From the NCBI GenBank assembly GCA_035315885.1, contig DATFXM010000194.1:44825-108824 (forward strand): a stretch of 64,000 nt of DNA. Reading direction: 5' to 3'. The translations under genes and the position numbers were made by a program. This DNA comes from Blastocatellia bacterium. Lineage in GTDB: Bacteria; Acidobacteriota; Blastocatellia; UBA7656. This document shows, piece by piece, positions 4,179-25,791 of this stretch (its first letter is position 1; the number at the start of each line of letters is the position of its first letter). The notes beneath the pieces are model-generated. The model had not been told where the DNA came from. It saw only the letters and a list, made by a program, of their open reading frames with translations, and did no database searches.

Positions 4179-4359
4179 GGAGTTCTGAGTTCTGAGTTAC
4201 CGAGTTCTGAGTACCGAGTTCTGAGTACCGAGTTCTGAGTCCCGGGCTGCCGAGTTCTGAGCCCTCGATATCCTGTCTTTTGTCAACACGCCGTCATCAA
4301 CAGGCCGTACTCACTGAATTCACCGCTCAAGCTAAGGACTCAGAACTCGGTACTCAGAC
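4179..4359. repeat. Hairpin element 1: left arm of ~13-nt tandem repeats (CGAGTTCTGAGTA x5, variants TT/CC), ~75-nt core, right arm ACTCAGAACTCGGTACTCAGAC (reverse complement)
   Basis: Direct reading of both arms. The tkt stop codon (TGA on the minus strand at 4354-4356) lies in the right arm. Confidence 0.8.
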
Positions 4360-6225
4360 CTCGAGAAGCGCCTTGACCAGCTTCACGATCGCTTTGCGAT
4401 CGATTCCATGAACTGCGAGAAGCTCTTCAGGCTTTCCGGACCGCGGAAGATCCCGCACCCCAAGCTGGTGGACGCGAAGACCTGAAGGCGCAACCGCAGA
4501 AGCGACTGCATCGCCGATGCCTCCAAGCATCGAGTGATCTTCAACGGTGATTATCATGTTGTTAGTGTCGCGGCCGGCGGAGCGCAAAAGCTGTTCGTCG
4601 ACCGGCTTCACCGAAAAGATATCGATAACTCTCACCAATATGCCTTCGCCCTTCAGTTGATCGTGCGCCGCCAGAGCCTCGAACAGCGTAACGCCTCCCG
4701 CTACGATCGTGACACGATCCTGATCGCTTCGCCGGACCACCTTTGCACGTCCAAGCTGAAATTTCTCATCGCTCGCATACAACACTGGAGTCTTCGGCCT
4801 GCTTGTTCTGATGTACACGATCCCGTGATTCTCGGCGGCCAGGCGCACGGCTGCTTCTGCCGCTACAGCATCCGAGGGGTAAAGCACCGTCGAACCCTCG
4901 ATCGCCCTCATCATCGCAAGGTCCTCGAGCGCCATTTGTGAAGGCCCATCCTCTCCTATCGAAACTCCGGCGTGTGAGCCGCAGAGCTTCAGGTTGGCTT
5001 GTGAGATCGCAGCCATCCTGATCTGATCGTAAGCTCGAGTAAGAAAGCAGGCGAAGGTTGATGCGAACGGGATCTTGCCCGAGGCGCTCAGGCCGACAGC
5101 CGCGCCTATCATGTTCTGCTCGGCGATGAATGACTCGAAGAATCGCGTAGGGTGCGCCTTCAGAAACTTCTCGGAGAACGTAGAGTTCTTTGTATCACCA
5201 TCGAGCGCCACCACCAGCGGATTTGTATTGCCAATCCGCGCCAGACCCTCACCGTATGCCTCGCGCGTTGCAATCTGGTCTCCCAGGTTGTACGAAGGCT
5301 GATGCGGAGCCTGCACGGCGCCTGGCGGATTCACCACCGTGCGCCCGTCGGGCGCCTTCATCGTCATCCGCCGGCCGTCGATTTTCGGTTCCAGCTCGGC
5401 CAGCGCGCGCTCCATCTCCTCGCCCTTCTTGAACGCTTTGCCATGCCAGCCGTTCTTGTCCTCAACGAAAGAAACACCCTTCCCTTTTTTGGTCAACGCC
5501 ACGATAACCGATGGTTTGTCTTTGATCTCTGTCGTCTGATCGAGTGCCGCGACGATTTGCCGTATATCGTGACCATCGATGACAACTGCGTGCCATCCAA
5601 ATGCCTCGAAGCGAGCCCGGTAGATTTCGCCGTTGTGCTCGTACATTGTCCGCTGGCTCTGCCCCAGCGCGTTGACGTCCACGATGGCTACGATGTTGTC
5701 CAGCTTGTGATAGGAGGCCATCGCGGCGGCTTCCCAGATCGAGCCCTCGGCTACTTCCCCATCTCCCATCAAAACAAAGATGCGGTTGTCGATTCGATCG
5801 AGAAAGCGGGAATTGAGAGCCATTCCAACGGCGCATGAGAGTCCCTGTCCGAGCGAACCGGTTGCGACTTCGACCCACTTAAGGCGTGGCGTGGGATGGC
5901 CCTCGAGATCACTGTCGATCAATCTTAGGGTCTTGAGGTGTTCAACAGGAAACGCTCCTGCTTCGGCCCATGCGGCGTAGAGCAGAGGAGCTGCGTGACC
6001 TTTGGAAAACACGATCCGATCGTTGAGCGGGTTCTTGGGATCGTTGACCTCGTACCGCATGCCGTGGAAAAAAACGGCCGCGGTCAGGTCTGCGGCGGAC
6101 ATACAACTCGTAGGATGCCCGGAACCGGCTTCCGATGTAGCGACGATCGAATCTACTCTGAGCCTGTTCCCCATTGCTGCAAGCGCTTCATACAAATCGT
6201 GATTCATTTTCGCAGACTGTTCCAT
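4354..6225 (-). CDS. tkt: Transketolase
   Basis: 623 aa; TPP-binding GSGHP..; transketolase pyrimidine-binding and C-terminal domains recognisable. Confidence 0.93.
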   Translation of the reverse strand: MEQSAKMNHDLYEALAAMGNRLRVDSIVATSEAGSGHPTSCMSAADLTAAVFFHGMRYEVNDPKNPLNDRIVFSKGHAAPLLYAAWAEAGAFPVEHLKTLRLIDSDLEGHPTPRLKWVEVATGSLGQGLSCAVGMALNSRFLDRIDNRIFVLMGDGEVAEGSIWEAAAMASYHKLDNIVAIVDVNALGQSQRTMYEHNGEIYRARFEAFGWHAVVIDGHDIRQIVAALDQTTEIKDKPSVIVALTKKGKGVSFVEDKNGWHGKAFKKGEEMERALAELEPKIDGRRMTMKAPDGRTVVNPPGAVQAPHQPSYNLGDQIATREAYGEGLARIGNTNPLVVALDGDTKNSTFSEKFLKAHPTRFFESFIAEQNMIGAAVGLSASGKIPFASTFACFLTRAYDQIRMAAISQANLKLCGSHAGVSIGEDGPSQMALEDLAMMRAIEGSTVLYPSDAVAAEAAVRLAAENHGIVYIRTSRPKTPVLYASDEKFQLGRAKVVRRSDQDRVTIVAGGVTLFEALAAHDQLKGEGILVRVIDIFSVKPVDEQLLRSAGRDTNNMIITVEDHSMLGGIGDAVASAVAPSGLRVHQLGVRDLPRSGKPEELLAVHGIDRKAIVKLVKALLEV

Positions 6226-6243
6226 TTAGACTCTCCGTTGTGT

Positions 6244-6366
6244 AGTGCTGAGTGCTGAGTCCTGAGCTGCCGGATCTTGCGTGCTGACTTTCTCAAATCT
6301 TTTTTGTGCTCAGCGGCTGTGTTCAGATACTCAGCACTCAGCACTCCGCCCTCAGGACTCAGAACT
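6244..6366. repeat. Hairpin element 2: arms GTGCTGAGTGCTGAGTCCTGAGCTG / CTCAGCACTCAGCACTCC..CTCAGGACTCAGAAC around a ~40-nt core
   Basis: Heptamer tandem (TGAGTGC/TGAGTCC) inverted arms. Contains the stop codon of the Tmk-like gene at 6352-6354. Confidence 0.8.
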
Positions 6367-23964: not shown

Positions 23965-23971
23965 AAAGAGC

Positions 23972-25534
23972 TCAGTCCGTCAGGTTTTTCGCTACGGCGA
24001 TCTCCGGTTGACTGAAAGGCCATTCCCTTCGCCGATACGAACGTATGAAGTAGATGATCAGGCCGAGTACTAGCAGCACAACCGCATACCTGATCTCTTT
24101 CTGGAAGTTTTGTCTGGATATCAGAACGTAGATGAAGCCAACCACCGCAATCAAAGCCGGAACTGGATATAGCCACATCCTGAATGGACGGGGATGCGAC
24201 GGCTGCCTCACTCTGAACACAATCACGCCGACAGTCTGCGACAGGAACTGGATGAGAATTCGTATGACCACGAGCGCTGCGATCACGTCCTGCAAGCGTA
24301 ACAGGCAGAATGCGGCGGCGACTGCTCCCATCACAAGCAACGATACGTAAGGAAAACGGTGCTTGCTGTGAACGCGCGCGAACATCTTAAAGTAATTCCC
24401 ATCGAGCGCCGCCGCGTACGGGACGCGCGAGTAACCGAGCAGCAGCGAGAACACTGAAGCAAAGGCAGTCCACATGATCAGCAGCGTCGCTATGATGGCG
24501 GCCCACCGTCCGTACAACCGCTCCATGAACACCGAGATGATGTAGCGCCGAGCATCGGAATTGGCGGTGCCGCTCAATTCCTGCCACGGAATTACACCGA
24601 GAATGCTGGTGTTCATGATCAGATAGATCACCGCGACGGCCAGAATCGACAGGATCACTGCTCGCGGAATCGTGCGCCCCGGATCCTTGACTTCGCCTCC
24701 GAAAAAACAGACGTTGTAGTAACCCCAGTAATCGTAAACGGCGACCAGCATCGCCGACCCCAATCCGGTGAAGAATCCCGCGGAAAGCTTAAAGGCTCCT
24801 TCAGGAAAATCGAACGCCCTTGCCCGATCGAAGTGCGTAACACCTGCGACAATCACCCACAGCACGGTCGCAATCACACCAACCCACAAGAATTTCGATA
24901 AGTGTCCGATGATGGTGATCTTGCGGTAAAGCAGCATGACCGCGACCGCAGCCACTGCCATGGCAATAATGGTGCCCTTTCCGAAGACCACACTGGCGCT
25001 CAAAGAACCGAGCACCGGAACGTTCAACTGGAAATCCCTCGACAGATAAACATCGGAGAGGTCCTTCCAGAGATAGCCGGCATACTGAGAGAGTCCAATG
25101 CAGCCTGAGGCAATTGAAAGCGGAGCGCTGAACGTCAATTGCCAAATGAATAGAAACGACATCATGCGCCCGAGCTTGTCGGCGCCATAGATCTCACGCA
25201 GGTAGCGATACGAACCGCCAGACCCGGGAAGGGCCGCGCCCAATTCGGCCCAGACTAATCCGTCGCAGATCACCAGCAGCGCTCCGAGGAGCCATCCGAG
25301 CATTGCCTGCGGCCCTCCCATCGCGGCAATGATCAACGGAATGGTGATGAACGGACCGACACCGATCATGTCGATCATGTTCAGTGTTGTGGCGCTTCCG
25401 AGACCTACGCCGCGGATCAACGGAGGCTCGGAGGCTGAATCTGCGGACGAGGTGGCAGGAGGGCTCAGAGTCTTTACGTCATCGGCGGGAGTGAGTTTGG
25501 GGGTCTTTGACATTCCGAGCAGGGCCCCTGCCAA
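23972..25534 (-). CDS. APC-superfamily amino acid permease
   Basis: 520 aa, ~12 predicted TM helices, N-terminal APC signature region (GVGLGSATTLNMIDMIGVGPFI). Confidence 0.85.
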   Translation of the reverse strand: MAGALLGMSKTPKLTPADDVKTLSPPATSSADSASEPPLIRGVGLGSATTLNMIDMIGVGPFITIPLIIAAMGGPQAMLGWLLGALLVICDGLVWAELGAALPGSGGSYRYLREIYGADKLGRMMSFLFIWQLTFSAPLSIASGCIGLSQYAGYLWKDLSDVYLSRDFQLNVPVLGSLSASVVFGKGTIIAMAVAAVAVMLLYRKITIIGHLSKFLWVGVIATVLWVIVAGVTHFDRARAFDFPEGAFKLSAGFFTGLGSAMLVAVYDYWGYYNVCFFGGEVKDPGRTIPRAVILSILAVAVIYLIMNTSILGVIPWQELSGTANSDARRYIISVFMERLYGRWAAIIATLLIMWTAFASVFSLLLGYSRVPYAAALDGNYFKMFARVHSKHRFPYVSLLVMGAVAAAFCLLRLQDVIAALVVIRILIQFLSQTVGVIVFRVRQPSHPRPFRMWLYPVPALIAVVGFIYVLISRQNFQKEIRYAVVLLVLGLIIYFIRSYRRREWPFSQPEIAVAKNLTD

Positions 25535-25590
25535 TTCAGTCGAGCACTAGAGCACTTGAAGTTTAAACCAAAAGACACAGGGGTAGAAAG

Positions 25591-25791
25591 GCAGTAGGCA
25601 GTAGGCAGTAGGCAGTAGGCAGTAGGCCGCATGCAGCACGCGCTAGGTATTCACGCGCCAACAGCTCCCGGCAGACAAACAGCGAGTCCGGAAGGCAACT
25701 GCCTACTGCATACTGCCTACTGCATACTGCATACTGCCTACTGCATACTGCCTACTGCATACTGCCTACTGCATACTGCCTACTGCTCAGT
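25591..25791. repeat. Hairpin element 7: left arm (GCAGTAG)x4-5, ~80-nt core, right arm (CTACTGC/ATACTGC)x12
   Basis: Heptamer arrays in inverted orientation. The right arm is expanded relative to the left. The stop codon of the downstream GspK-like gene (25787-25789) is embedded. Confidence 0.8.

Follow-up and report, generated by a model that had tools for sequence, protein, structure and literature searches.

Where does a gene end when a repeat lies across its stop codon? We addressed this question in a 64,000-nucleotide stretch of a soil Blastocatellia (Acidobacteriota) genome with a GC content of ~57%, hereafter called the window, in which hairpin-forming elements with arms of tandem seven-nucleotide units (heptamers) lie at the ends of genes. 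An original prediction held that these elements donate the stop codons of four genes: tkt, the second of two thymidylate-kinase paralogs (Tmk paralog 2), a gene for a VOC/glyoxalase protein (VOC) and a ‘GspK-like’ gene. This was borne out for the first three, not for the fourth. With moderate confidence, we favour the reading that the elements are lineage-specific palindromic repeats, similar to REPINs or to MITEs (miniature transposable elements with inverted repeats), with inverted arms of tandem heptamers that donate stop codons through simple arithmetic.

Heptamer-armed hairpins and the stop codons they supply

Inverted repeats with arms of tandem heptamers occupy seven spacers of the window between positions 4180 and 25786 (elements E1–E7; Table 1). 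Six are of the CTGAGTN type and one, E7, which the original prediction had taken for CTGAGT heptamers, belongs to a different family from E1–E6, with the unit AGGCAGT, which is also used in the inner part of E3. These seven heptamer-armed hairpins are real. The motif CTGAGT occurs 67 times in the window versus 28.9 ± 5.5 expected, and the 16-mer AGTKCTGAGTNCTGAG, allowing up to two mismatches, has 29 matches versus 0.2 expected; every such match falls within E1–E6, left arms carrying it on the plus strand and right arms on the minus strand, with none past 20.4 kb of the window. Tandem arrays of period 7 number ten, as against none of period 6, two of period 8 and three of period 9; all the period-7 arrays, with at least two copies of the 7-nt unit, are intergenic, and arrays on opposite strands are paired closely enough to form a stem-loop. 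Predicted RNA hairpins for E1–E7 have minimum free energies (MFE) of −33 to −132 kcal/mol and z scores of −3.5 to −10, with the exception of E4, whose predicted fold is weak. An assembly artefact was considered and is unlikely, given that L086, a contig assembled independently, matches the window at 99.7% identity over 2.4 kb that include E2 and the right arm of E1.

The CTGAGT-type elements have more than their unit in common. Termini of 23–25 nt are identical in E2, E5 and E6, which share AGTGCTGAGTGCTGAGTCCTGAG, while AGTTCTGAGTCCTGAG is common to E2, E3 and E4, so that the elements possess shared terminal inverted repeats; the tips of this family read AGGRAGTGCTG. In addition, E5 and E6 share a 22-nt block (CTGAAGGRAGTGCTGAGTGCTG, 21/22 identical; 18512–18536 and 20366–20390) that includes the stop codon of the neighbouring P5CDH gene, as well as GAGTTCAACCC in their loops. 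The two arms of an element carry unequal numbers of heptamers. Once the element is subtracted, 3–108 nt of each spacer remain, which is in the range of ordinary gene junctions. The elements lie tightly against gene 3′ ends: the stops of all six element-facing 3′ ends fall between 16 nt inside an arm and 6 nt outside it, and element-facing 5′ ends are mostly 18–113 nt off, the exception being an uncertain rhomboid start ~2–12 nt after E4.

CTGAGT-type elements are confined to 16 kb (4180–20390), with none in the other 44 kb of the window, and the six of them form three pairs, each enclosing one gene: E1/E2 around tkt, E3/E4 around thiolase and E5/E6 around P5CDH. As a signal, this bracketing was judged too weak (p ~0.07 within 13 local spacers, by hand calculation).

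How an array can end a gene in whatever frame it is entered follows from its unit, whose length of seven cannot be divided by three, and from the fact that each flank meets an arm reading CTGAGTN or AGGCAGT. At period 7, CTGAGTN presents TGA in all three frames (CTG AGT NCT GAG TNC TGA; C TGA; CT GAG TNC TGA), so an open reading frame (ORF) runs at most five codons into the array and meets a stop within 18 nt in every frame. The 5′ arm is the CTGAGT strand on both DNA strands, and either flank therefore meets that strand first; AGGCAGT arrays behave likewise, with TAG at each heptamer junction. Because of this, a gene whose native stop was removed or overrun would end after no more than five extra codons, and insertion or array growth over a gene end would consequently be nearly neutral and could persist. 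On the opposite strands, ACTCAGN and ACTGCCT, no frame contains a stop, and long spurious ORFs that cross the arms on this strand, at 20181–20624 (+) and 25631–26785 (+), overlap the VOC gene and the pseudopilin-like gene described below.

Three of the genes at issue terminate within an arm. The tkt stop (TCA at 4354–4356 on the plus strand) lies in E1, inside ACTCAG (4352–4357) and inside a 23-nt inverted repeat, having entered the array in the shortest frame. Among 78 tkt homologs, 67 end 0–2 residues before the window protein, and the closest syntenic relative (80% identity) has a C-terminus ~6–7 aa longer (630 vs 623 aa); judged by these homologs, the tkt end is inside the normal range of its family. 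VOC and Tmk paralog 2 entered in the longest frame. Tmk paralog 2 draws its stop (6352–6354) from E2, ending in AGT TCT GAG TCC TGA, which is two heptamers that are paired in the predicted stem; its orthologs (236–237 aa) end ...RRIGRLLREMx, and the window protein, ending ...LLRRVEDRSSES, is ~6 aa longer. VOC takes its stop (20368–20370) from E6 and ends in AGT GCT GAG TGC TGA, exactly two heptamers, again inside the predicted stem. The original prediction assigned the last six VOC codons to the element, giving GAEGSAEC, a string of eight residues. Four codons (SAEC) belong to the strict array, and six (EGSAEC) are reached on a looser count that includes a 7-nt CTGAAGG common with E5. In VOC orthologs, conservation ends at ...GQEVGLTV and tails of 3–14 residues follow, most proteins having 138 aa; the window protein has 143 aa, 5 aa beyond the usual length, with the tail AGAEGSAEC.

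The remaining two ends tell a different story. The ‘GspK-like’ gene received no Pfam match, and its homologs are named PulG-like pseudopilin by JGI, so we refer to it as pseudopilin-like. Contrary to the claim, its stop (25787–25789) is not repeat-borne; it is 1 nt beyond the ACTGCMT array and does not pair in the predicted fold. The RPLN* end is common to orthologs at 58–71% identity, and the gene of the relative L164 ends ...CTC AAT TGA with no array; by this comparison the TGA is native and ancestral, abutting E7 without being part of the array. The P5CDH stop had been placed 5 nt from E5. That proximity stands, at a measured 4 nt from the heptamers, with the stop inside the block shared by E5 and E6. 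Its position is conserved in relatives, and the last residue is Y here, as against L in the five closest relatives read and in L161; the P5CDH stop, too, may be element-borne.

The expectation that insertion remodels C-termini thus applies to Tmk paralog 2 and VOC, on the evidence of ortholog lengths and array-coded tails, and does not apply to the pseudopilin-like gene. Identical ends in relatives without the repeat, a pattern that the original prediction had tied to coincidence, were found for the pseudopilin-like gene alone and not for VOC or Tmk paralog 2; on both counts tkt is neutral. As read from these alignments, the remodelling is small: 4–6 residues in two genes.

Origin of the elements and competing explanations

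Syntenic relatives (L161–L164, L167 and, in part, L001–L005) have the same gene order and no heptamer hairpins at the orthologous spacers, which makes the elements lineage-specific insertions or expansions and upholds the proposal that they inserted or expanded at gene 3′ ends. The VOC–P5CDH spacer, for example, is 21 nt long in L161 (stop, ribosome-binding site, ATG) and 282 nt long here. Short promoter-like or 5′ sequences just beyond E5, E6, E7 and E1 are conserved in the relatives, so that the elements sit in the poorly conserved stretch between a stop and the next control region. When the element loops were aligned to the relatives’ element-free spacers, no significant similarity was found inside the elements, and only the downstream promoter/5′ regions aligned.

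The CTGAGTN family extends to phage contigs. An exact 19-mer, AGTGCTGAGTGCTGAGTCC, is present in five IMG/VR loci. One of these, L168, has genes for an integrase, a replication-initiation O-like protein and a terminase large subunit (E = 2.9e-260 for the last), and going by this gene content is a real temperate phage or prophage. Two others, L170 and L172, are parts of a single 40.8-kb contig that has arrays at many gene junctions, denser than in the chromosomal window. Arrays in the phage contigs lie 2–10 nt past stops or supply the stop themselves (the L172 gene at 168–1142; an ORF ending ...VLSAES*), and SAEC* or SAES* endings recur on unrelated ORFs. Beside the heptamer arrays lies a GTAG-tagged palindrome similar to repetitive extragenic palindromes (REPs), GTAGGGGCGCAGCATGCTGCGCCCC, at ~8331–8356 in L170 and ~2705–2730 in L172.

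A survey of 167 fetched loci together with the window revealed inverted heptamer-array pairs in 24 loci (23 of the 167, plus the window), most of them labelled Acidobacteriota. Their heptamers bear no relation to each other (AGATGCT, ATTTGAG, CGTAAAT and AACGCTG are examples), and, the phage loci aside, the CTGAGTN family is absent from the other 165 loci, except for the near-identical L086. In nine of 11 examples read directly, the array starts 1–10 nt past the stop of a long ORF, and in two the stop is inside it (TAA in both L047 and L078); where the next start could be located, its ribosome-binding site and ATG fall within ~5–35 nt of the array. The pairs typically span from the stop codon to ~15–20 nt before the next start and have a common polarity, with a C-poor, stop-rich 5′ arm toward both flanks: in a small, non-independent sample, 5′ arms contain 14% C and stops occur only on the inward-facing strand in 11 pairs versus only on the outward-facing strand in three. 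On a 7.2-kb Acidobacteria contig (L007, 787–5520), four consecutive spacers carry four unrelated 7-mers (AGTTTTC, AGATGCT, ATTTGAG and ACCGGCT). A literature search found no papers on heptamer hairpins in Acidobacteria. That such hairpins constitute a distinct, Acidobacteriota-wide class of element placed just past stop codons seems doubtful to us, the alternative being ordinary selfish repeats; if it were true, it could point to a mechanism dedicated to generating them, or to a function specific to the host, such as insulating translation or transcripts by halting read-through whatever the frame.

Several observations count against insertion of a dispersed repeat as the origin of the elements. 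The flanks of the 14 element ends show no target-site duplications, scanning ~50 window ORFs brought up no transposase, and the loops, E5 and E6 excepted, are unrelated between copies. Simple insertion does not account for the E2 site, where the spacer measures 126 nt against 163 nt in L167, which has no element there. The closest element-free relatives are only 75–84% identical to the window at the protein level, which leaves exact insertion boundaries undefinable, and the L007 pattern fits growth in place better than the spread of one mobile family. On that account, ordinary hairpins at 3′ ends lengthen by slippage of 7-nt units in one arm, template switching carries the change into the other, and the stem extends outward to the stop or past it, with no transposition. 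It is in keeping with the unequal arms (~12 vs 3 heptamers in E1, 5.6 vs 12.7 in E7), with the different heptamers of adjacent L007 spacers and with locus-specific loops; moreover, heptanucleotides are reported, in work cited by MacGregor (2015; PMC4679880), to be the most abundant class of long simple repeats in most surveyed bacterial genomes. However, six elements within 16 kb have the same higher-order arm sequence, with up to 25 nt identical, the similarity between E5 and E6 extends past the heptamers, and phage contigs carry an identical 19-mer, all of which calls for dispersal or gene conversion beyond local growth. We consider growth in place improbable as the explanation, while retaining it as a live alternative or an added process. 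Coincidence, in which the genes’ own TGA stops happen to adjoin TGA-containing repeats, is most improbable of all. TGA is the commonest stop codon of the window (28/55), the pseudopilin-like stop is demonstrably native, the P5CDH stop keeps its position and tkt ends where its family does; against this, the tails of Tmk paralog 2 and VOC run 5–6 aa beyond their orthologs and are spelled exactly by heptamers, the tkt stop is embedded in a perfect 23-nt inverted repeat, and unrelated phage ORFs have the same endings. The ortholog alignments refute coincidence for VOC and Tmk paralog 2, and it holds for the pseudopilin-like gene.

The original prediction also raised the possibility that the elements are native transcription terminators or 3′-stabilising hairpins, in which case they would be selected transcript-end signals and the overlap with stops would reflect tight packing of a functional 3′ element. 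Very stable predicted hairpins directly past stops would suit such a role, as would the reappearance of this architecture, built from unrelated heptamers, across Acidobacteriota and in a phage. Promoter-like sequences conserved in relatives, moreover, follow just downstream of E5 and E6, a position in which a 3′ hairpin could plausibly protect the upstream transcript or mark its end. As native terminators, the elements fare poorly. A terminator scan and direct reading showed no U-tract following the 3′ arms of E1, E2 and E4–E8; the one element hairpin flagged by the scan (3900–21000) is the inner one of E3, on a strand without an upstream gene, and a canonical terminator with a U-tract does exist in the same window, at 10019–9989. 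E3 and E9 separate divergent genes; the junctions filled by E2, E4 and E8 have the look of operon-internal ones, with the element ending 2–18 nt from the next start codon; and the relatives do without elements at the same sites. Selection as transcript-end signals is, in our judgement, an unlikely explanation.

Under the preferred reading of lineage-specific palindromic repeats, the elements settle in the first nucleotides past a stop, upstream of the promoter or ribosome-binding site of the next gene. They would spread between sites, the family being carried by both the chromosome and a temperate phage contig, and grow or shrink by slippage, leaving unequal arms. Where insertion or array growth removed or overran the native stop, as may have happened in Tmk paralog 2 and VOC, the gene would acquire an SSES* or SAEC* tail. 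On the mRNA, a long hairpin would then form right past the stop; rather than a classical intrinsic terminator, it would more probably be an intercistronic insulator or a block to 3′ exonucleases. Ribosomes that terminate within the 5′ arm would need to open the stem at its base.

Surroundings of the elements

Pfam backs the labels of tpiA, pgk, gap, tkt, both thymidylate-kinase paralogs, the S41 peptidase and the thiolase, as well as those of the rhomboid, TPR protein, P5CDH (Aldedh), VOC/glyoxalase protein, PIG-L protein and amino-acid permease. P5CDH is 77–82% identical to its counterparts in Blastocatellia metagenome-assembled genomes. The sole tyrosine recombinase found (36192–37070) matches Phage_integrase domains and is read as XerC/D-like. 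Scans of the window for Rfam families, at gathering thresholds, and for tRNAs returned no matches.

Two further elements, E8 and E9, lie outside the stretch covered by the observation in the original prediction. The arms of E8 are built from 8-nt repeats (GGGGATGA / TCGCCCCT) and enclose an inner inverted repeat of TTTGCGNNC units. The GGTTTAG unit of E9 is the same as the plant telomere repeat TTTAGGG, a likeness that is probably coincidental. The loop of E6 (20196–20365) contains three ACGCAACCCC-N3-GGGGTTGCGT palindromic motifs and a 15-nt direct repeat, which suggests nested repeat elements. In-frame tandem repeats occur within an ORF at 29402–31180 (a 592-aa protein with no Pfam match), at 29825–30006 and 30483–30597, with units of 15 nt (12 copies) and of 24/51 nt.

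Table 1. Hairpin elements, associated genes and array sites. Positions refer to the window unless a locus is named.
Feature	Position	Strand	Location	Arms or content	MFE (kcal/mol) and z
E1	4180–4358		between tkt and gap		−73; z −3.7
E1 left arm, long	4180–4268			~12 GAGTTCT/GAGTACC heptamers	
E1 right arm, short	4331–4358			perfect 23-nt inverted repeat 4220–4242 / 4336–4358 (TCTGAGTACCGAGTTCTGAGTCC)	
tkt	4354–6225	minus			
E2	6244–6366		fills the 126-nt Tmk paralog 2–tkt spacer; ends 18 nt before tkt ATG		z −3.9
Tmk paralog 2	6352–7092	minus			
Tmk paralog 2, last four codons and stop	6352–6366	minus		SSES*, heptamer-coded	
E3, nested	11843–12010		between divergent S41 peptidase and thiolase genes	outer CTGAGT arms; inner AGTAGGC/GCCTACT hairpin	z −4.6
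E4	13239–13337		starts ~6 nt past thiolase stop (13230–13232); ends 2–12 nt before rhomboid start		−29; z −1.5
Promoter-like sequence of downstream TPR gene	18421–18450	minus	conserved in relatives without E5	TTGACC-N18-TATCTT	
E5	18463–18534		between P5CDH stop (18532–18534) and conserved promoter of TPR gene		z −3.6
P5CDH	18532–20085	minus			
E6	20170–20390		between VOC and P5CDH	arms AGTGCTGAGTGCTGAGT	−132; z −10
VOC	20368–20799	minus			
VOC, last four codons and stop	20368–20382	minus		SAEC*, two heptamers	
E7	25589–25786			arms AGGCAGT (×5.6) and ACTGCMT (×12.7; 25698–25786)	−127; z −9
Pseudopilin-like gene	25787–26878	minus			
E8	47977–48298		from 3 nt past one ORF’s stop to 12 nt before the next ATG		−187; z −10.3
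E9, nested	59762–59942		between divergent genes	inner arms GGTTTAG / AACCCTA	
CTGAGTN-family sites in IMG/VR loci	L168 3013–3111; L169 3030–3048; L171 2053–2071; L170 and L172, many sites				

Known repeat systems and significance

The donation of stop codons by repeats has itself been described before in other bacteria, with REPs, Coxiella MITEs and arrays of TAACTGA and GGGAATC units as cases. Xanthomonas genomes each contain 70–75 convergent pairs of GGGAATC arrays with the potential to form stem-loops, which occur preferentially between co-directional genes and mostly lie within 50 bp of a stop codon, some overlapping it; GGGGAYT heptamer arrays are present in Nostoc (Rehm et al., 2015; PMC4692102). 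The elements described here are similar to the Xanthomonas arrays in consisting of intergenic tandem 7-nt units in inverted pairs. They differ from the arrays of both genera in phylum and in their units (CTGAGTN, AGGCAGT and GGTTTAG), which are not G-quadruplex-forming and which carry a TGA or TAG that stops translation in all frames; moreover, the arms here often fill the whole spacer. The TAACTGA repeats of marine Beggiatoaceae likewise combine a heptamer with stops in all three frames, overlapping ORF ends by up to 18 nt and the stop itself in 13 ORFs (MacGregor, 2015; PMC4679880). However, those are direct repeats, mostly just upstream of starts and with one inverted pair, whereas ours are inverted pairs that form long hairpins past stops.

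REPs and REPINs are extragenic palindromes, often in inverted dimers, that lie near or overlap coding regions, and the ends of REPs ‘often provide the stop codon’ to neighbouring ORFs (Di Nocera et al., 2013; PMC3733652). A REP unit is a single imperfect palindrome of 20–40 nt with a GTAG/CGTC tag at its end and a cognate tyrosine transposase (RAYT), in contrast to the tandem-heptamer arms seen here. The tag is absent from the CTGAGT family, GTAG being found only in the AGGCAGT units of E7 and E3, and no RAYT-type transposase was seen among the ORFs scanned in the 64 kb. In Coxiella burnetii, QMITE1 and QMITE2 overlap the 3′ ends of functional genes by 1–50 bp and have given enhC a C-terminal extension (Wachter et al., 2018; PMC5896051). 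Like them, our elements are small hairpin-forming repeats that overlap gene 3′ ends; unlike those MITEs, which have defined terminal repeats, direct repeats and a conserved interior, they show no target duplication, and their loops are not conserved. Thus, of the marks of a MITE, shared terminal inverted repeats are present, while target-site duplication and an interior derived from a parent element are not; of those of an intrinsic terminator, a position between a stop and the next promoter is seen (E5 and E6), and a U-tract after the hairpin is not. We conclude that this is a new family of a kind of element that has already been described.

For genome annotation, this means that gene callers working on Blastocatellia will report short repeat-coded C-terminal tails (SSES*, SAEC*) and can be misled by spurious ORFs on the stop-free strand of an arm. 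The family is also a clear case of a stop-carrying repeat unit, of a length that is not a multiple of three, colonising gene ends at almost no cost. Heptamer-armed hairpins are abundant and diverse in sequence across Acidobacteriota, with one family common to chromosome and phage.

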